A DNA stretch of 63,943 nucleotides, counting the filler, from an uncultured Methanosarcinales archaeon (GTDB lineage: Archaea > Nanobdellota > Nanobdellia > Woesearchaeales > CAZXZL01): the NCBI GenBank assembly GCA_964645415.1. It is 8 parts of 8 records of this genome, joined end to end, with 100 filler letters (N's around TTAATTAATTAA, not from the genome) between each part and the next. Parts side by side here need not be neighbours in the genome. Positions count along the whole stretch, not along the records: positions 10,146 to 19,835 come from CAZXZL010000036.1; 7 more parts are not named here. One strand, 5' to 3'. The position numbers and the translations under genes are program-made. The notes under the pieces were generated by a model that worked only from the letters and a program-made list of their open reading frames with translations, did not search any database and was not told the origin of the DNA. Position 1 is the stretch's first letter. Each line of letters starts with the position of its first letter. Shown piece by piece: positions 1 through 60,730 of the stretch.

Positions 1-150
1 AAGTTTATGCTAAAGAAGTGTGTATTCGTGGATTGTCTTTCAGAGTGTGTATTCGTTTTTCCTCTAATTAAAATAAAAGAAAGTTTACAGAAATAAGATA
101 AAAATATTTTAGAAACTTCAGTGCCATACATCGTATGGTACATGTTTTTA
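1..150 (+). repeat. Interspersed mosaic repeat: TATTCG units plus core hairpin at 121-141
   Basis: GTATTCGT at 22 and 49; GTGCCATAC-ATC-GTATGGTAC. Confidence 0.8.
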
Positions 151-4044: not shown

Positions 4045-4150
4045 AATATTCGTATTTAGCTAAAGAGTATGTCTTCGTTTATTTTCTAAAGAAATAGTAG
4101 GGCAAAATCATCTAAGAGAACTCTTGTCGACTTTTTATAAAAAAGTCTCC
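4045..4150 (+). repeat. Interspersed mosaic repeat: TATTCG units, GTAGGGCAAAATCATCTAA, secondary hairpin
   Basis: Motifs shared with 13640-13925 and 36525-36616. Confidence 0.8.
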
Positions 4151-9979: not shown

Positions 9980-10045
9980 TATTCTCAATCTGTATCACAC
10001 AATCTTTATCAAAGTTTTTAATCTGTGATTAAATAACCCTTAAAA
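9980..10045 (-). repeat. Interspersed mosaic repeat fragment (TGATAAAGATTGTGTGATA module)
   Basis: Reverse complement matches 59463-59492. Confidence 0.75.
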
Positions 10046-10145: not shown

Positions 10146-10260
10146 TCTGTAAACTAGATGCAGTTGTTACTAAAACACCTGCAGCAATTGCAGCAACTAA
10201 GATCATTGCTATAAAAATAATCAACGTTCCAATACCCATATCTGCTTTTTTATCAAACAT
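10146..10260 (-). CDS. arlB: Archaellin, 5' fragment truncated by assembly gap
   Basis: Manual translation [38 protein letters not shown]; absent from the ORF track. Confidence 0.9.
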
Positions 10261-10384
10261 ATTCACACCCTATTATGTTATTGAAAATAGAGTATTTAAA
10301 CTTTTATATAGTAGAATATAAAGAAAAGAGTAAACATAATTACAAAAAGAAATAGAAAAGAAAAAAAAAGAAAAATTAAAGTGT

Positions 10385-10975
10385 TTATGGATACATAAAG
10401 ACTTTTTCATTAGTCATAATCTGTGGAGTTACTGTATCTAAATCAGTAGGATTTCCAACTTTTAAAACTAATCTAACATTAACTTCTTCATCTTCACCAA
10501 TTTCTCTTGGAGTATTAAAACAAACTCTTGCTACATCTCCTCTCTCCAAATAACCTTCATTTTCTCCACCAATTAAATACTCTACAAAATATCCATCACT
10601 ATCTTCTATTACAGTAGAATTACATACATCAACTGTCTCTTCATAAGACATAGATTTAGATTCATCATCTAGATTATTTGTGACTAATGTCTCTTCAAAT
10701 TGAATTTGATCAGAACCAGGAGCTAATTTAACATCCAAATAAAGTTCATCAATAAGACCATCATTACCATCTTCACCATATAAAGAAAGTGGTAAAACAC
10801 GTGTACTTACTTGTGTTCGAGAACGAGAACCAGTAAGTAAAGCTCGATTCTGTAAACTAGATGCAGTTGTTACTAAAACACCTGCAGCAATTGCAGCAAC
10901 TAAAATCATTGCTATAAAAATAATTAGAGTACCAATACCCATGTCAGCTTTTTTATTTTCTTGAAAAAATACCAT
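10385..10975 (-). CDS. arlB: Archaellin
   Basis: Class III signal peptide plus [30 protein letters not shown] motif; GAGGTGA SD. Confidence 0.95.
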   Translation of the reverse strand: MVFFQENKKADMGIGTLIIFIAMILVAAIAAGVLVTTASSLQNRALLTGSRSRTQVSTRVLPLSLYGEDGNDGLIDELYLDVKLAPGSDQIQFEETLVTNNLDDESKSMSYEETVDVCNSTVIEDSDGYFVEYLIGGENEGYLERGDVARVCFNTPREIGEDEEVNVRLVLKVGNPTDLDTVTPQIMTNEKVFMYP

Positions 10976-11091
10976 TAATTAATTCACCTCATTATTATAA
11001 TAGTATATATATTTGTATATTATTTATAAATGTTTCTATAAATATGTAAAAAAAAGAAATAGAAAAGAAAAAAAAGAAAAAATTAAAGTGT

Positions 11092-11682
11092 TTATGGATA
11101 CATAAAGACTTTTTCATTAGTCATAATCTGTGGAGTTACTGTATCTAAATCAGTAGGATTTCCAACTTTTAAAACTAATCTAACATTAACTTCTTCATCT
11201 TCACCAATTTCTCTTGGAGTATTAAAACAAACTCTTGCTACATCTCCTCTCTCCAAATAACCTTCATTTTCTCCACCAATTAAATACTCTACAAAATATC
11301 CATCACTATCTTCTATTACAGTAGAATTACATACATCAACTGTCTCTTCATAAGACATAGATTTAGATTCATCATCTAGATTATTTGTGACTAATGTCTC
11401 TTCAAATTGAATTTGATCAGAACCAGGAGCTAATTTAACATCCAAATAAAGTTCATCAATAAGACCATCATTACCATCTTCACCATATAAAGAAAGTGGT
11501 AAAACACGTGTACTTACTTGTGTTCGAGAACGAGAACCAGTAAGTAAAGCTCGATTCTGTAAACTAGATGCAGTTGTTACTAAAACACCTGCAGCAATTG
11601 CAGCAACTAAAATCATTGCTATAAAAATAATTAGAGTACCAATACCCATGTCAGCTTTTTTATTTTCTTGAAAAAATATCAT
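11092..11682 (-). CDS. arlB: Archaellin (near-identical to the 10385-10975 copy)
   Basis: Same protein except residue 2; ATG 11682 follows an AAGGTGA SD. Confidence 0.95.
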   Translation of the reverse strand: MIFFQENKKADMGIGTLIIFIAMILVAAIAAGVLVTTASSLQNRALLTGSRSRTQVSTRVLPLSLYGEDGNDGLIDELYLDVKLAPGSDQIQFEETLVTNNLDDESKSMSYEETVDVCNSTVIEDSDGYFVEYLIGGENEGYLERGDVARVCFNTPREIGEDEEVNVRLVLKVGNPTDLDTVTPQIMTNEKVFMYP

Positions 11683-11822
11683 TATTATCACCTTTTAAGT
11701 AAATTAGTATATAATTCAATATATTGATATATAAATATTTCTCAAAAATCATGGAAATATTGCAAAAAATAAAAAACAAAATATATTAAGAAGTATTTTT
11801 TGATACTAATAAGGTGTAACAT

Positions 11823-13559
11823 ATGACTGAAAATCAAAAAGATCTTAAAAAAATAAGCAAAAAACTTATTGAAGAAAATGAAAAAATTAAAGCATCATTT
11901 TTATTAGAAAAAGAAGAAAATAAAGAAGATTTTGAATTAAGTGAAGAAAAAGAAAATGTTGGATTTATCATTGATGATTTAAAACTTTTTGAAATGAAAA
12001 AAGATAGAAAAACAGAAAAGAAAGATTTTGAAAAAGAGAAAAAAGAAGTTATTGGAACTTTTGATAAATTAAAAGAAGAAGAAAAAGAAATTAATCCTAT
12101 TCCTATTCCATTATCAAAAGTTTGGGAAGATTGTTATGATGGAAAATATGAATTAGTAAAAGTAATAACTGAAAGTGAAATTATTTATGATAAAGGTATA
12201 ATCTCATCTCTTAAAGTTGTTCAACAGCACAAAAATAAGGTAATTAATAAGTTTAAAAGATATGTTGTATCTTATGTATTAGCAGGTTCACTTGTTAGAG
12301 GTGAAGCAACTAAAGATTCTGATGTTGATGTTTTTGTAGTAGTAGATGATACTGATGTAAAAAGAATGTCAAGAACAGAGTTAAAAGAAAAGTTAAGAGC
12401 GATCATAATCAAAATGGGTTATGAGACAACAAAAGAGCTTAATGTTGAAAATAACTTAAATATTCAAGTTTACATATTAACAGATTTCTGGGAGTCATTA
12501 AAAGATGCTAATCCAGTTATTTATACATTTATTAGAGATGGAGTCCCATTATACGATAAAGGTACATTTATGCCTTGGAAGAAACTCCTTAAAAAAGGAA
12601 TGATACAACCATCAATTGAAGCAATTAATAAGATGTTTGTATCAGGTGAAAAGATTATGGGTAAAGTAGAAGATAAAATAAAAGATATTGTTATTGAAGA
12701 TTTATTTTATGCAATGCTTACTCCAAGTCAATCAGCATTAATGTTATATGGACTTCCACCAAGTGTTCCAAAAGAAACTCCTAAATTAATGAGAAAAGTT
12801 TTTACTAAAGAAGATGACTTATTAGAAGAGAAATATGTTAAGATGTTAGAAAAAATAGTAAAAATAAGAAAAGACATAGAACATGGTAAAAAAGATGAAA
12901 TTACTGGAAAAGAACTAGATAAATTAAAAAAAGACTCTAAAGATTATTTAGAAAGACTAAATGAACTTGTTGATGAAATTGAAGTAAAAAGAGAAAAAGA
13001 ACAAATCACAGAAATTTATGATGAATCAATTCATCAAATTAGAAGTTTATTAAAAGAATATGATGTAGAAAATATCAATGAGGATAAGATAATTGATACA
13101 GTAAAAGAAAGATTAATTAAAAATGGAAAAGCAGCAAATTCTTTACAAAGAGATTTAAAAAAGATCATAAAAGGTTATAAAGATTTTAAATCAGATAACT
13201 TAAAAAAATCTCAATTAAAAGAGATAAAGAAATCTCATAGAAATTTTGAAAGAGAAATTGAAAGGATTAGAGATACAGAAAGAATTGCTAAAGAGCAAGG
13301 AAGAATTAGAATCTTTTTAAAAGATGAAGATAAAAAAGGAGAGTTATATATGATTAAAGGAGGAATATTACTTGTTCCTGACATTGAAGAAAGAAATAAA
13401 GTTAAAATTTATAAGAGTAAAAAAGAGAAATGGGAAGAAAAGGAATTCAAAGAGGATGAAATGGAATATTTCATAATTGAGAACATAAGAGAAGAACCTT
13501 TTGAAATTGAAGAAATTCAAAAAGTTAAAGAAGAGATTGGAGAATTCAAAATCAAATAA
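11823..13559 (+). CDS. Nucleotidyltransferase (MNT-like) domain protein fused to a HEPN-like region
   Basis: GSLVRGEATKDSDVDVFVVVDD Pol-beta NTase motif; downstream DLFYAM and RKDIEH (Rx4H). Confidence 0.75.
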   Translation: MTENQKDLKKISKKLIEENEKIKASFLLEKEENKEDFELSEEKENVGFIIDDLKLFEMKKDRKTEKKDFEKEKKEVIGTFDKLKEEEKEINPIPIPLSKVWEDCYDGKYELVKVITESEIIYDKGIISSLKVVQQHKNKVINKFKRYVVSYVLAGSLVRGEATKDSDVDVFVVVDDTDVKRMSRTELKEKLRAIIIKMGYETTKELNVENNLNIQVYILTDFWESLKDANPVIYTFIRDGVPLYDKGTFMPWKKLLKKGMIQPSIEAINKMFVSGEKIMGKVEDKIKDIVIEDLFYAMLTPSQSALMLYGLPPSVPKETPKLMRKVFTKEDDLLEEKYVKMLEKIVKIRKDIEHGKKDEITGKELDKLKKDSKDYLERLNELVDEIEVKREKEQITEIYDESIHQIRSLLKEYDVENINEDKIIDTVKERLIKNGKAANSLQRDLKKIIKGYKDFKSDNLKKSQLKEIKKSHRNFEREIERIRDTERIAKEQGRIRIFLKDEDKKGELYMIKGGILLVPDIEERNKVKIYKSKKEKWEEKEFKEDEMEYFIIENIREEPFEIEEIQKVKEEIGEFKIK

Positions 13560-13639
13560 TCTCTTTTTCTTTTTTATTTTTTTAATCTAGACTTACAATA
13601 ATTCTAAATATGCATTTTTAATAAAGTATCAAAATTATG

Positions 13640-13925
13640 TTAAATAAATCATCTACGTTTAATCTTCTTCGAAAATTTAATTCGTTTCTTTTCTAAAGAG
13701 ATTGTAGGGCAAAATCATCTAAAGAAAAAAAGAAGTTTATAAAAAAAGAAGCAAAAAGAAATAGAATTTAATAGAATCTAAAGTGCTATACGAAGTATAG
13801 TACCATCCTTGCCAACTTACTAAACTAAAGTTTAGAACTGTTAAATTAGAAATTTAAAAGTGTGATAAAAGCTGTGATAAAGATTGAGAGAAAATCATCT
13901 AAAGAAAAAAAGAAGATTATAAAAA
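13640..13925 (+). repeat. Most complete copy of the mosaic repeat (core hairpin 13783-13803)
   Basis: GTAGGGCAAAATCATCTAAAG, GTGCTATAC-GAA-GTATAGTAC, 42-bp module 13821-13862, TGATAAA module, second AAATCATCTAAAG. Confidence 0.88.
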
Positions 13926-14025
13926 AACAATGACATATAAAATATGCAATGATTTAGTATCAGATTTGTAAATAATTCAATAATTTAATTAATAAAAATA
14001 TTAAGTAGATTTAATTTAAATTTAC

Positions 14026-14478
14026 ATGGCAAGATATAAAATTAGTTCTAAAAGAGAGTTAAAGAATCCAACAAAAAATCAAAAAAGAGGAAAAAGACTT
14101 GAAGATATTATTGAGTCATTATTAAAAAGAACTAAATTTAGAGTAAAAAGGAATAGAATCCTTAAATATAAAAAAACTTACTCTGAAATTGATTTTATTT
14201 ATGGATTAATTAGAAAAAAATATGTTGAATGTAAGGAATATAAAAACAGAAGTGTTCCATTAAGAGATATAAGTAAATTTTATGGTGTTTTATCAATGAT
14301 GGGAATAAAAGGGAAAAAAGGAGAATTTTATACAAATTCAAAGTATACAAAAAGAGCAAAATATTTTGCAGAAGAACATAAATTAAAAATATACAATGGA
14401 AGAGACTTAGAGAAGTTATTAAAAAAGAAAAAATTAAAAAAAGAAATAAAAAAATTAAAGAAGTTAGGTTTACCTTAA
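14026..14478 (+). CDS. Mrr-like restriction endonuclease (PD-(D/E)xK)
   Basis: GKRLE...EIDF...YVECK...TNSKYT..A pattern of the Mrr catalytic domain. Confidence 0.8.
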   Translation: MARYKISSKRELKNPTKNQKRGKRLEDIIESLLKRTKFRVKRNRILKYKKTYSEIDFIYGLIRKKYVECKEYKNRSVPLRDISKFYGVLSMMGIKGKKGEFYTNSKYTKRAKYFAEEHKLKIYNGRDLEKLLKKKKLKKEIKKLKKLGLP

Positions 14479-28690: not shown

Positions 28691-28837
28691 TATCACAATT
28701 TTTATCAAAATTGGCTAGGATAGTACCATATTTCATATGGCACGTTAGTTTCGATAGTACTCTATTTATTTCTGTTTTTGTTTTTATAAGCTTCTATCTT
28801 TTTTTTTTCTAAGATGATTTGATCTCAGCTTTTATCA
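28691..28837 (-). repeat. Mosaic repeat copy (core hairpin 28723-28743)
   Basis: Minus strand GTGCCATAT-GAA-ATATGGTAC plus AAATCATCT module. Confidence 0.85.
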
Positions 28838-32292: not shown

Positions 32293-33573
32293 TCAATTCA
32301 AACCACGTAATGCACTTGTTTCATTCAAAAATATCAATGCATCATACCTTCTAGAAATTAATGTAGGAACATAATTTCCTCTCTCTTGATTAGGATTATA
32401 AGTAACTCCAATTGCTCTATGTGTCATTTGAGACACATCATCACGGCTTTCATTAAAAATAAATAATGCTTTATCAAGACCATGACTGCTAAAAAGATTT
32501 CCATAACTACCTCTCATAGCTTCAGGAACATCCATAATTTCTTTATTAGAACCCCAACTACTTCCAGCACTAACCTTACCAGTATTCTTTGCAAAACCTA
32601 ATATAAAAACATCATCATACCACTCTCTAAGTAATTGACCAATGTTAAATTGACCTTGATTACCCATAGCACTAAATCTTGCATCACCCATATGTGTATT
32701 ATGTGCCCAAAAAGCTCCCTTTGAGTCTTCTCCATAGTATCTGTTTAATCTCTCAGCAGTTCTAGCAAAATGCTCAGCACGAACATTCCAAGAACCAGGA
32801 TCTCCTTGTGCAGATTTTCTATAAAATCCTTCAGCAGACTTTAAAACATTTAAACTTTGAAAAATTAAAAGATTATCTTTATTAGAAACATCATCATAAT
32901 TTTCATATAAATAATTTCCAAACTCATTAAGTTCATCTTCACAATCATCATTTTGACTAATAACAAAATTAGGATAATAATCAAAATCAAAACCAAATAA
33001 GCTCATACACTCTCTTAAATCAGCTAAATATTCATTTTCATCGATTAAATTAGAAAGTAAATCAAAACTACCCTCAGCACTATAAACATCAAAACCATAA
33101 ATTCCAACCATATCTTCATAATCTTTATCAGAATTATATTCTCTAAGCCATTCAATTAAATCAAGAATTACATCATTTTTCCACATCCATTGAGGCCATC
33201 TTTCAATACTTTGCATAACTTCTCTAGAATCATCATCAGTTCTATGTTTAACATAATCATTCAATTCTAACATAACACTCCAATCTCCCTCAACAGCAAC
33301 ATAATCAAAATCATGTTTATCAATTAATCTTTTAGAAATATCTTTTCTAATAGTATAATACTCATAAGTTCCATGTGTTGATTCTCCTAATAAAACAAAT
33401 CTATTATCTTTAAATTCATCAATTAATTCTTCATAATCATATAAATCATTCATAACTCTTCCACTTAAACCCTCTTCAATTTCAAAAAATTCATCTTCAA
33501 AAAGAGCTTGATCTTGACATCCAGAAAACAAAAAGCTAACCATTAAAACAATAAAGAATATTTTTAATTTCAT
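32293..33573 (-). CDS. Erythromycin esterase family lipoprotein
   Basis: LLGESTHGTYEYY, VAVEGDW, RWPQWMW, WAHNTHMGDAR, HRAIGVTY; lipobox FSGC. Confidence 0.92.
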   Translation of the reverse strand: MKLKIFFIVLMVSFLFSGCQDQALFEDEFFEIEEGLSGRVMNDLYDYEELIDEFKDNRFVLLGESTHGTYEYYTIRKDISKRLIDKHDFDYVAVEGDWSVMLELNDYVKHRTDDDSREVMQSIERWPQWMWKNDVILDLIEWLREYNSDKDYEDMVGIYGFDVYSAEGSFDLLSNLIDENEYLADLRECMSLFGFDFDYYPNFVISQNDDCEDELNEFGNYLYENYDDVSNKDNLLIFQSLNVLKSAEGFYRKSAQGDPGSWNVRAEHFARTAERLNRYYGEDSKGAFWAHNTHMGDARFSAMGNQGQFNIGQLLREWYDDVFILGFAKNTGKVSAGSSWGSNKEIMDVPEAMRGSYGNLFSSHGLDKALFIFNESRDDVSQMTHRAIGVTYNPNQERGNYVPTLISRRYDALIFLNETSALRGLN

Positions 33574-36716: not shown

Positions 36717-36925
36717 TTGAGCAGGATGGTACCATTCTAAAGAATGGCACGTTAGTTTCTATAATATTCTATTTGTTTTTATTTTTGTTTTTATAAAATC
36801 CTTTTTTTTAATTTGGATGATTTTGATTTCTACATCATCGAAGATAAAAAGAGATTTCTAATTCCTTTAGCTAAAGACGAATATTATTTTTTAAAGAAAA
36901 TTTTGCCCTACACACTGCACTTTAA
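36717..36925 (-). repeat. Mosaic repeat copy (core hairpin 36729-36750)
   Basis: Minus strand GTGTAGGGCAAAA...TATTCG...AAATCATC...GTGCCATTC-TTTA-GAATGGTACCATCC. Confidence 0.85.
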
Positions 36926-44172: not shown

Positions 44173-44227
44173 TTCTTCGAAACTTAGAAAAAAACTTTGT
44201 TTTTTTCAAGGTGAGAAATCTTTTGAT
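44173..44227 (+). repeat. Double-hairpin repeat module, copy 1
   Basis: TTCGAAACTTAGAAAAAAACTTTGTTTTTTTCAAGGTGAGAAATCTTTTGAT; also at 51690-51748 and 59240-59295 (minus). Confidence 0.88.
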
Positions 44228-44327: not shown

Positions 44328-44447
44328 AATCTCTGATTTTATTCACTTTTAAATTTCTAATTTAACAGTTCTAAACTTTAGTTTAATAAATTGACCAGAT
44401 GGTACCATTCTAAAGAATGGCACGGTATTTTTATGATATTCTATTCA
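44328..44447 (-). repeat. Mosaic repeat copy (core hairpin 44402-44423)
   Basis: 44344-44385 is the exact reverse complement of 13821-13862. Confidence 0.88.
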
Positions 44448-51634: not shown

Positions 51635-51689
51635 TTAATTTAATTAATTCTAAAAAATAGTAATTTTTTTTATTTTTTCTCATTTAATC

Positions 51690-51748
51690 TTCTTCGAAAC
51701 TAAGAAAAAAACTTTGTTTTTTTCAAGGTGAGAAATCTTTTGATTTCA
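51690..51748 (+). repeat. Double-hairpin repeat module, copy 2
   Basis: Near-identical to 44173-44227. Confidence 0.88.
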
Positions 51749-52094: not shown

Positions 52095-52314
52095 AGTTTG
52101 TATTCGTATTTTGCTAAAGTTTGTGTATTCGTATTAAGCTAAAGAGTGTGTATTCGTTTAAGTGTAGTGTGTAGGGCAAAATCCTCTTTTGTTGTTTTAT
52201 CAGAATTTTATACTCTTTTCTATTATCTTGATAAGTTTTTATTTTTTATAGGCAAATCAGCAGATTTTTTACTTGGATGTGTTTTTAATTATGTATAAAA
52301 TTCCTCTTAAGTTG
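52095..52314 (+). repeat. 25-bp tandem TATTCG units, GTAGGGCAAAATC, and a ~100-bp inverted-repeat-bounded element
   Basis: GTATTCG at 52100, 52125 and 52150; IR GAATTTTATAC 52203-52213 / GTATAAAATTC 52293-52303. Confidence 0.8.
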
Positions 52315-58904: not shown

Positions 58905-59029
58905 TTTTGTTTCAACCTTTATCAAGCTTGGTCAGGATGGTACTATACTACCTGTAGCACTGTAGTTTCTATTAAATTCTATTTGTTTTTATTTTTATTT
59001 CTATTAGTATCTTTGTTTTTAGATGATTT
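58905..59029 (-). repeat. Mosaic repeat copy (partly decayed core hairpin 58940-58960)
   Basis: Minus strand AAATCATCTAAA...AAATAGAATTTAATAGAAACT..GTGCTACAG-GTA-GTATAGTACCATCCTG. Confidence 0.85.
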
Positions 59030-59129: not shown

Positions 59130-59497
59130 TTTAAAAGTGAATAAAATCATAGATTTTAAAACAATTGAAGCAGAGTTTTCAAAGCGAAGAAAAACAAAGA
59201 GTTTTTTATGTTGTTTAAATCAAAGATTTAAAAGGTTAGTGAAATCAAAAGATTTCTCACCTTGAAAAAAACAAAGTTTTTTTCTAAGTTTCGAATAAGA
59301 CAAAGTCCTAAAGAGAGTAGAAAATAAAAACCTAAAGAGTGTCGAAATCAAAATCATCTAAAGAAAAAAATAGTAGGAGCTTATAAAAGCAAAAACAGAA
59401 ATAAATAGAAATTTATAGGAACTAACGTGCCATTCGTTAGAATGGTACCATCCTGGTCAATCTTGATAAAGATTGTGTGATAAAGATTGAGATTGAA
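59130..59497. repeat. Large mosaic repeat cluster (core hairpin 59427-59448; double-hairpin module inverted at 59240-59295)
   Basis: Contains four of the modules seen elsewhere. Confidence 0.88.
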
Positions 59498-60730
59498 TTA
59501 ATTAACATTATTCTTATAATCATTTCTAATACGTGATAAATCCCTTTCTTCAGTTCCAACTGGAATTGACAATCTTTGATTAACACGAATATTATCAGTT
59601 CTTATATCAGGATTATGTCTTTTAATATCATTTACACTTACTCCATAATTATTTGAAATTCCTGAAAGAGTATCTCCACTTTGAACATTATATGAATCAT
59701 ATACTGTTGCATCAAATGAGTTATTTTGTTCAAGATATCTATTAAATAAGTCTGCAGCAGATAATACTTTATGAACATAACGTCTTCCATTTAAAGCATA
59801 GTTTTCATTAAAGTATTTTGAAGTAATTTCATCATCTGAAAGTAACTTTGAAAGGTTGATATCATATTTTTCTATTTTATCTTTCCAAATATCTCTTAAT
59901 TGAACTTCGGATTCTGGATTTTTATGTTTATTTATATAATCTGCAACTAAATTACCTACATTAGCTTCACCTTGATGATAACCTAATATAGCTAAATCTA
60001 ATCTTCCAAAACGTTCATTTTTTAATCTATCTAAATACTTATGAGCGGCCTCAGTAGATTTAGTTGTAGAAAATCTTTCATCAATATTATTATTTACTTT
60101 TAATCCATATGTATTTGCAATATGAGGACCTAATTGATAAATACCTGCATTACCAGTATGTGATACTCCTTCAAGACTACCACCACTTTCAATTAACATA
60201 ATACCAATAGATACATCAATAGGGATATCATATTTTTGAGAATTTTTTCTAATAACATTATAATTTCCAGCAGCTATCTTTAATGCGTTATGAACACCAC
60301 CGTTTCCATCAACATGGTGATAAACTTCATTAACACCACTTTTTAATTTATTTAATTCATTTGAACTGTAATCGTTAAATAAATGATCAATTCTATCTTC
60401 AAGATAATTTGAACCTCTAAAATCATCTATATTATAATCATCATTTGTAATATTTTCTTCATTATTTAAATTAGAACTTTCTAAAGAATCATCTAATATA
60501 TTTTCAAGAGATTTATCTCTATTTTTATCTTTTATTTCATTTTCAATTCTTACTTGATTGCTTTGATTTGAATTAACTTTATTTTCATTAATCTGAGCTT
60601 GATTTGACCCTAAGTAAATTCCAGAAAGTAAACTTAAACCAACAGTACCTACTGCTAAAAACTTTTTTACTTTTTTTCTAAGTCTTTTTTCAGATCTTTT
60701 ATCCCATTTATTATGATAATTTGTCATCAA
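59498..60730 (-). CDS. Lytic transglycosylase (SLT/MltD-like) with C-terminal LysM domain
   Basis: IMLIESGG, AGIYQL, YGL....DERF...ST.AA.KYL, LAILGYHQG; LysM YNVQSGDTLSGIS..YGVSV.DI...N. Confidence 0.92.
   Translation of the reverse strand: MMTNYHNKWDKRSEKRLRKKVKKFLAVGTVGLSLLSGIYLGSNQAQINENKVNSNQSNQVRIENEIKDKNRDKSLENILDDSLESSNLNNEENITNDDYNIDDFRGSNYLEDRIDHLFNDYSSNELNKLKSGVNEVYHHVDGNGGVHNALKIAAGNYNVIRKNSQKYDIPIDVSIGIMLIESGGSLEGVSHTGNAGIYQLGPHIANTYGLKVNNNIDERFSTTKSTEAAHKYLDRLKNERFGRLDLAILGYHQGEANVGNLVADYINKHKNPESEVQLRDIWKDKIEKYDINLSKLLSDDEITSKYFNENYALNGRRYVHKVLSAADLFNRYLEQNNSFDATVYDSYNVQSGDTLSGISNNYGVSVNDIKRHNPDIRTDNIRVNQRLSIPVGTEERDLSRIRNDYKNNVN

Follow-up and report, generated by a model that had tools for sequence, protein, structure and literature searches.

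The hairpin at positions 13783..13803 (+) of the window, which is the whole stretch of 63,943 nucleotides analysed here, belongs to a mosaic repeat, of which it is the best-conserved module, and is not a 21-bp stand-alone element. The modules of this repeat are reshuffled at a scale of about 10 nt, while sites that pair with each other stay coupled. The family is real, apparently undescribed and a variant of the BIME/PATE kind. With it, a small symbiont-type archaeon holds 2.4% of its genome in a repeat without a recognisable mobilising gene.

The window joins 8 contigs of one assembly by N-runs, and positions count along the window. The host assembly has 25% GC and consists of 961,391 bases, spread over 79 contigs of which the smallest has 1,526 bases, and its completeness is rated 100%. 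Archaeal gene content was seen in the window (DP2, archaellins, AglB-type STT3), and homologues of the NTase gene beside the focal copy came mostly from Woesearchaeota, Pacearchaeota and Nanoarchaeota records with 39-54% identity (23 loci). The closest relatives found have 34-55% identity in the protein adjoining the focal hairpin, and kinship searches gave genomes of this order only. Four DNA runs from a single soda-lake study contain the window in whole or in part, two of them possibly its source, and no RNA run was listed. A strict pattern of the hairpin, here called hairpin 1, gave 6 copies in the window, with 0 expected from 100 shuffles. Genome-wide, 55 strict matches were obtained, 71 when two substitutions were allowed, and 1 further copy brought the total to 72; loops and pairs were tallied on 71 copies and positions on 69. 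Hairpin 1 is 21-22 nt long, none of the 69 copies lies inside an ORF of at least 100 aa, and 37 of the 69 are within 300 nt of a contig end. The initial annotation had listed seven copies in the window. Six are exact in coordinates and strand, the seventh (58940-58960, -) is present, and the orientations given relative to the NTase, kae1, arlJ, uvrA and SLT genes are correct. Its description of a dispersed, non-autonomous-looking family is supported.

The whole repeat family was delimited by all-against-all BLAST coverage and comprises 92 segments, together 22.7 kb. Contig ends are touched by 57 of the 92 segments, and 35 are internal (34-607 nt, median 229). We estimate that the segments correspond to roughly 60-65 loci. 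Present at 57 of the 158 contig ends, the family repeats are a main cause of the fragmented assembly. Their neighbours are mostly housekeeping genes. Many of the flanking genes act in DNA repair or replication (uvrA, uvrB, uvrC, mutL, ligase, topA, SMC, polB, DP2, hjc, glycosylases, photolyase, RNR, a Toprim protein) or encode tRNA synthetases.

Pair 3 of the hairpin 1 stem is G.T in 68 of the 72 copies, T.T in 2, C.T in 1, A-T in 1 and G-C in none, so the G.T pair, which had been said to be invariant, holds for most copies but not for all. The other variable pairs (n=71) are pair 5 with C-G 47, T-A 23 and T.G 1, pair 7 with T-A 66 and C.A 5, pair 8 with A-T 51 and T-A 20, and pair 9 with C-G 54, T-A 9 and 8 unpaired. 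The complete 9-bp stem is predicted to fold on the top strand only, and a stem of 6 bp on the opposite strand. In an alignment of 30 copies, 97.9% of the 240 cells pair, and the covariation score exceeds that of all 500 shuffles. Two-sided changes were found in only 2 of the 8 pairs that were counted (pair 9 was excluded for its gap placement), a number that was reached by 486 of the 500 shuffles, and covariation is thus no independent proof of selection. Judged by haplotype, it appears to stem from about three substitution events. Of the covariation described earlier for stem positions 5, 8 and 9, the substitutions in these pairs are confirmed, but they trace to only these few events and could also be produced by template switching (PMC8794818).

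One allele, with pairs 7 and 9 broken, is predicted to fold on neither strand and is identical in 5 copies. The copy at 58940..58960 (-) is one of these, a recurring allele and not a partly decayed hairpin as had been assumed. The interpretation as a selected single-stranded structure is therefore upheld in part: the hairpin is kept paired, is strand-asymmetric and has DNA-type loops, but the small number of events and the non-folding allele at 5 loci weaken the case for selection on every copy.

The loops of hairpin 1 end in A in 66 of 71 copies and the inverted form of a common loop occurs in none, which contradicts the earlier view that the loops vary freely. C(GAA)G, C(GGA)G or C(GTTA)G, i.e. 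c(GNA)g/c(GNNA)g, make up 30 of the 71, and C(TTTA)G another 14. At the 5' foot, 16 types of tetranucleotide were counted in 69 copies, and the opposite strand carries AGGAT[GA]. Since the four bases 5' of the foot vary, there is no guide tetranucleotide; a GTAG/GTGG or CGTC tag 5' of hairpin 1 was found in none of the 69 copies. The 3' flank reads [C/T]ATCCT followed by a variable triplet. The CATCCTG flank noted before is thus conserved in its first part, but its last part belongs to the variable triplet and the copy at 121-141 is without the flank. At C14:11977-12015, two hairpin 1 alleles are fused, with the right arm passing into the next left arm via shared bases, likely a template-switch or recombination junction.

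The modules follow each other in the order of variable left mini-modules, box A, A-rich linker, hairpin 1, CATCCT spacer, variable triplet and hairpin 2. A further box A often comes next, and the unit then either repeats or peters out. The focal element, as delimited by BLAST coverage, spans 13631..13930 (+; C36:3486-3785) with ragged ends, between the NTase gene (11823-13559) on its left and an Mrr-family gene (14026-14478) on its right. Its left mini-modules, common to many copies, lie at 13651..13710 (+), in the parts 13651-13673, 13681-13698 and 13704-13710. The junction motif box A (13712..13722, +) and the A-rich linker of interchangeable alleles (13723..13782, +) lead to hairpin 1, a 9-bp stem with G.T at pair 3 and a C(GAA)G DNA mini-hairpin loop. 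The spacing from box A to hairpin 1 is 67-78 nt in 50 of 69 copies. The CATCCT spacer with the variable triplet (13804..13812, +) is followed by the hairpin 2 shell at 13813..13874 (+), with the left arm at 13813-13818, the right part at 13863-13874 and one A.C mismatch. The focal hairpin 2 is split by a 44-nt insert that contains two hairpins (13820-13835 and 13841-13857, +). An extra tandem right part of hairpin 2 (13875-13886) and the second box A (13892-13902) follow at 13875..13902 (+). At C64:2660-2761, the right part of hairpin 2 has been amplified in tandem locally.

Genome-wide, 24 copies of hairpin 2 are uninterrupted and 31 contain an insert of nested hairpins, 44-181 nt long. All of these inserts enter at one identical position without duplication. 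A mismatch or wobble was present in 17 of the 55 hairpin 2 shells.

Other members of the family in the window show how the modules are combined. At 4..141 (+), a variant copy combines left modules with hairpin 1 (121-141), whose 3' flank differs. The segment at 4047..4117 (+) is without hairpin 1 and has left modules, box A and a third type of terminal hairpin, which follows left modules at 3 places in the genome. A family element tail at 9993..10045 (-) is cut by a contig end, as are the elements with hairpin 1 at 28723..28743 (-; T(GAA)A allele) and 36729..36750 (-; C(TTTA)G allele). The second C(TTTA)G allele, at 44402..44423 (-), lies 26 nt past the stop codon of kae1. The start of a long branched left module, of which the genome has 9 copies, was found twice, at 44173..44227 (+) and 51683..51748 (+), and is cut by the contig end both times. 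In the type-B element at 52095..52310 (+), left modules and the box are followed not by hairpin 1 but by a module of about 95 nt that combines 11-bp inverted arms with a central hairpin; this arrangement is found at 14 places in the genome as full copies. The mosaic element at 59134..59493 (+) contains hairpin 1 at 59427-59448 as the C(GTTA)G allele and a hairpin 2 that is uninterrupted and fully paired.

Linkage between the modules was analysed by haplotype. When all eleven scored modules were present, 51 of 52 haplotypes were distinct. Within hairpin 1, r2 was 0.94 across pair 5, whose sites are 12-13 nt apart, and 1.0 across pair 8, whereas a stem site and an unpaired flank site at a distance of 5-13 nt gave only 0.001-0.052 in the six comparisons made (n=63-69). 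The arms of hairpin 2 occur in five Watson-Crick types and are matched in 18 of the 24 uninterrupted copies (5.8 expected). Even where an insert separates the arms, 20 of 31 copies keep them in a Watson-Crick match, with 13.5 expected when permuted within the insert class (p = 2e-4), and in the largest insert class in 10 of 15 versus 4.7 expected. Multi-base alleles and identical inserts of 44-48 nt were found on many backgrounds, which rules out recurrent point mutation. We infer that patches are copied between loci. The population-genetic signal is unusually clean, as linkage tracks base pairing rather than distance, and it makes the spread and diversification of REP/BIME-like mosaics testable outside bacteria.

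The ends of the segments are ragged (42 5' ends and 61 3' ends). Terminal inverted repeats of at least 10 bp are absent from the main element, and 11-bp inverted arms occur in the type-B module only. At the ends of the 35 internal segments, no excess of direct repeats and hence no target-site duplication was detected; the longest word common to both ends averages 5.5 nt compared to 5.3 in shuffled pairs, a test that is weakened by the ragged ends. For orientation, 10 of the 92 segments are head-to-head, 0 tail-to-tail, 46 in single orientation and 36 have one half unassigned. Modules are also present in both orientations within single elements.

A mobilising enzyme was searched for in the contigs of at least 1,526 bases. 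Pfam/NCBIfam family searches of the host assembly gave no match for Y1_Tnp, REP_Tyr_transpos (RAYT), Phage_integrase PF00589 or RVT_1, and none for the TnpB zinc ribbon, DDE_Tnp_1, IS110, Resolvase or Cas1. A local HMM made from 30 Y1 proteins of the order found nothing (best E 0.67 over 14,735 six-frame segments). A Pfam scan of 162 neighbouring or small-contig ORFs and 54 window ORFs, together 216 of about 931 crude ORFs, revealed no mobilising enzyme; the remaining ORFs were covered by the nine family searches and the HMM. The expected Y1/RAYT or tyrosine recombinase gene flanked by the hairpins was not encountered in the assembly, nor was a RAYT gene flanked by the family repeats. A short gene flanked by family repeats would form a contig of less than 1.5 kb, so the absence of the enzyme holds for the assembly and not for the organism. 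An XerA-type enzyme (PF00589) is also missing from this genome, rated as complete.

Y1 genes are present in 103 of 301 genomes of the order, and the best 30 of these loci resemble IS200-type elements. Hairpins were observed near four of the 30 loci, with the loops TTTA (2), TTCA (1) and TTAC (1) and with stems unlike hairpin 1; no sequence like hairpin 1 flanks the Y1 genes at any of the 30. The likeness of these flanks to the family is therefore one of loop identity only (TTTA, TTCA; 30 loci). The passages on archaea in a survey report only IS200-type Y1 enzymes and no RAYT classes there (PMC6006769). A distinct clade of longer Y1 proteins (170-260 aa, approximate length of the open frames) was met in many genomes of the order, often with the same short hairpin just before the start.

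The distribution of the family was then followed outside this genome. The flanked hairpin pattern with 2 mismatches allowed was found in 0 of 400 genomes of the order. The strict pattern occurred in 1 of 40 genomes, as a single copy before a tRNA-like gene; this lone hairpin (G024:C141:3305-3325) has the arms of hairpin 1 and is without family flanks. A relaxed pattern matched in 41 of the 400 genomes, never more than a few times per genome; most of these matches do not pair internally, and they resemble the reversed control. BLAST with the whole element hit 97 of the 400 genomes in short low-complexity stretches only, nearly all in the A-rich linker. The tallies over the 400 genomes, like that of the Y1 genes, include genomes flagged as unpublished (G112, G131, G273, G315, G335, G374), on which nothing else here depends. 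Three public collections gave 2 genome and 5 viral single matches, all without family flanks, and metagenomes 0, and none of the 75 loci around NTase homologues had hairpin 1. Collecting the copies genome-wide was thus productive in the host, with its 72 copies, but the search of the 400 other genomes of the order brought no multi-copy match. By these comparisons, the family sequence is specific to the host genome among those searched; no close relative was found, and no empty site was seen.

In the literature searched, no description of such mosaics in DPANN was found. The relevant passages of a tool paper predict loosely defined REP-like palindromes in archaea and do not mention DPANN (PMC12306157). 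That repeats would be unexpected in this lineage is not wholly borne out by a MITE survey, where 105 calls per Mb are given for one Woesearchaea genome (PMC11602168). Table S2 of PMC11602168 may bear on the novelty of the family and Table S9 of PMC3119063 on the PATE comparison.

Among known systems, the family is BIME-like in its working, yet it is not a REP, a PATE, an IS200/IS605 end or a MITE. With the REP/BIME repeats of enterobacteria and pseudomonads, which are mobilised by RAYT/TnpA-REP, it shares an intergenic location, a high copy number (1-2% of the genome) and a short imperfect hairpin (PMC3333891, PMC8266576, PMC6006769, PMC3733652). Also shared are a conserved stem irregularity that marks one strand, mosaic clusters with linkers, a tandem and head-to-head layout and a lineage-specific sequence; a head-to-head bias has been reported for REP dimers as well (PMC3733652). 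TnpA-REP recombines and diversifies BIMEs in vitro (PMC3333891) and recognises stem mismatches and loops, and TTTA is the loop of a Marinomonas REP (PMC8266576). However, there is no GTAG/GTGG or CGTC tag and no RAYT gene, and for this reason the copies are not REPs. For the REP-like element of the first reading, a conserved guide tetranucleotide is also missing. The family further differs by its archaeal host, the many AT-rich hairpins per element, the inserts nested in the second hairpin and the shuffling at about 10 nt.

The PATEs/SMR-A of Haloquadratum walsbyi, derived from IS200/IS605, are likewise archaeal, transposase-free, palindrome-bearing and without target duplication, and their palindromes take up SMR-A repeats without duplication, like the hairpin 2 inserts (PMC3119063). 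Mobility of PATEs has been noted without an intact cognate transposase in the genome (PMC3119063). Unlike PATEs, the family has no terminal oligonucleotide or definable ends and no related IS605 element in the genome. IS200/IS605 ends share the lack of a target duplication, but their conserved guide tetranucleotide and defined ends are absent here. Prokaryotic MITEs are also short, non-coding, intergenic and dense in a Woesearchaea genome (PMC11602168), and the 11-bp inverted arms of type-B recall them, whereas the main element has neither terminal inverted repeats nor target duplication and no DDE transposase was found. The mini-hairpins c(GNA)g/c(GNNA)g of ssiA, the phage G4/St-1 origins and the N4 promoters have exactly the closing pairs and loops of 30 of the 71 hairpin 1 copies (PMC13037366). 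They are a structural motif and not a family; here there are dozens of chromosomal copies, 41 of the 71 with other loops.

Three further candidates were rejected. One hairpin 1 allele has a 12-nt likeness to a phage recombinase site; the other alleles have no such likeness and no recombinase is present. An integron attC or Xer-type site would call for a tyrosine recombinase, and PF00589 was not found in the assembly. The target hairpin of a DGR lies just 3' of a variable coding repeat in a reverse transcriptase system (PMC8632793); RVT_1 was not found, and the copies lie in both orientations beside housekeeping genes.

We consider it likely that the family is a DNA-folded, patch-shuffled mosaic. 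The shuffling of modules leaves each hairpin largely whole, and this suggests that they are copied as folded single-stranded DNA. The fuller account, which in our judgement is about evenly balanced between right and wrong, is that of a non-autonomous element handled as single-stranded DNA, seeded in trans by a Y1/HUH enzyme and now reshuffled by short-patch copying; the Y1 origin of the family is by itself a tentative and somewhat doubtful proposal. The seeding enzyme, most likely of the Y1/HUH kind, would since have been lost or would lie on an unassembled short contig. Present-day copies would swap short patches by crossing over in the unpaired junction motifs, and a folded hairpin, or both arms of hairpin 2, would thereby travel as a unit. 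Compensatory stem changes would originate in intrastrand template switching and be passed on by patch copying. Template switching produces compensatory changes while keeping the loops (PMC8794818), and the single copy in which G.T is corrected to A-T is what it predicts. A benefit to the host, e.g. at 3' ends where genes converge, would be secondary.

A bolder version, which we regard as unlikely, is that of an undescribed archaeal class of transposase-free mosaics, in which a host or viral enzyme of no known transposase family would cut or template-switch folded, mini-hairpin-capped single-stranded DNA modules at short unpaired junctions and exchange them between dozens of loci with a resolution of about 10 nt. 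If such a new recombination route on single strands exists, it would offer a new way of rewriting DNA at very fine scale. Without a new route, the family would still preserve a good natural record of how template switching and gene conversion act in DPANN archaea.

The repeats could also be made by the host alone, with a transposase never involved. Hairpin-rich patches would stall replication, and template switching and ectopic gene conversion would copy patches into other AT-rich gaps and keep the stems paired. Such an origin would fit the nine mobile-element enzyme families that were not found, the ragged ends and the missing target duplication. Patch copying in this genome is also seen in near-identical tandem archaellin genes and in shared coding tails, template switching would account for compensatory changes with the loops kept (PMC8794818), and the non-folding allele has spread to 5 loci. 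However, the first colonisation of about 60 unrelated gaps is left unexplained, as are the survival of G.T in 68/72 copies alongside perfect inner pairs and the entry of the hairpin 2 inserts at one exact position. We hold a purely host-made family, the main rival reading, to be rather unlikely.

Whether the modules act as DNA or RNA was addressed by their loops. The survey took distinct perfect hairpins with a stem of at least 6 bp. Loops of 3-4 nt that are closed by C-G and end in A on one strand were found in 30 of 85 family hairpins versus 10 of 409 in other intergenic DNA (p = 2e-17, overstated since the family members are non-independent). A GNRA or UUCG loop occurred in 1 of the 85, and three-base loops predominate. 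GCGNAGC and GCGNNAGC are unusually stable DNA mini-hairpins and less stable as RNA; such mini-hairpins occur at ssiA, the G4/St-1 origins and the N4 promoters and are present at priming sites on single-stranded DNA (PMC13037366). Single-stranded DNA is thus favoured over RNA by the loop types. In the secondary hairpins, loops ending in A are found on either strand (43:25 downstream, 20:24 upstream). One-strandedness is thus confined to hairpin 1, and the repeat may form a cruciform or fold on both strands.

A structured RNA, that is a small-RNA family or a domesticated 3'-end signal such as a terminator or mRNA stabiliser, selected as RNA, is very unlikely. G.U would be a normal RNA pair in the nearly complete pairing of the 30-copy alignment, and convergent gaps are modestly over-represented, with 8 convergent, 16 tandem and 6 divergent gaps at 30 scored loci versus 9, 88 and 43 (p = 0.005, with crude ORF calls). 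But GNRA and UUCG loops are rare, and the orientation is independent of the neighbouring genes, with 27 genes toward and 32 away at the 3' end of the element and 23 toward and 16 away at its 5' end. The modules that lie in both orientations within one element do not fit an RNA either. The Rfam family match that had been proposed as a check was searched for in the window, where only a tRNA matched and the hairpin gave no gathering-score match. At the focal copy no terminator-like site was detected by a bacterial-type scan, the host being archaeal; together with the gene-independent orientation, this agrees with the initial annotation that the hairpin is not a plain terminator.

Host cis-sites, i.e. 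ssi-like single-strand priming signals or binding sites of chromosome proteins that are dispersed because they are useful, are highly improbable. C(GAA)G and C(GTTA)G are indeed the loops of ssiA and the phage St-1/alpha3 priming hairpins (PMC13037366), the spacing from box to hairpin is kept in 50 copies, and all copies are intergenic. Yet such sites were not found in the 400 other genomes of the order, and the copies vary in stem sequence and in loop length, as would be expected of neither a duplex operator nor a recombinase site. Co-orientation along the contigs was not seen, since adjacent loci had the same orientation in 10 and a different one in 19 cases. An association with tRNA genes was also discarded, as a segment lies within 150 nt of 7 of the 40 tRNAs, close to the rough expectation of about 14%.

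An assembly artefact, in which chimeric paths through repeats produce the mosaic pattern, has a negligible chance, for although 57/92 segments touch a contig end and one pair of segments flanking an N gap is identical, 35 segments are internal and linkage is lost over 5-13 nt, less than the common word required for a de Bruijn chimera.

Several other repeats and genes were observed. Unrelated short tandem arrays lie at C6:31383-31676 and C16:8303-8739, one of them ending in box A. Lys/Ser/Asp-rich low-complexity stretches at C4:22471-22941, C4:30193-30348, C10:22064-22132, C12:13-391, C19:8374-8836, C33:5208-5665 and C42:1234-1423 share identical patches. They are apparently coding tails of different genes, and some hold the box A word, by chance or exchange. 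In the window, 10146-11691 contains tandem archaellin genes with a period of 707 nt that are 99% identical over 300 nt and include an identical block of 587 nt. A third archaellin copy is cut at the contig start, and the array is a recent duplication or gene conversion. Two further genes were noted for their presence in an archaeon, one of the erythromycin-esterase family at 32293-33573 and one with SLT plus LysM at 59498-60730.
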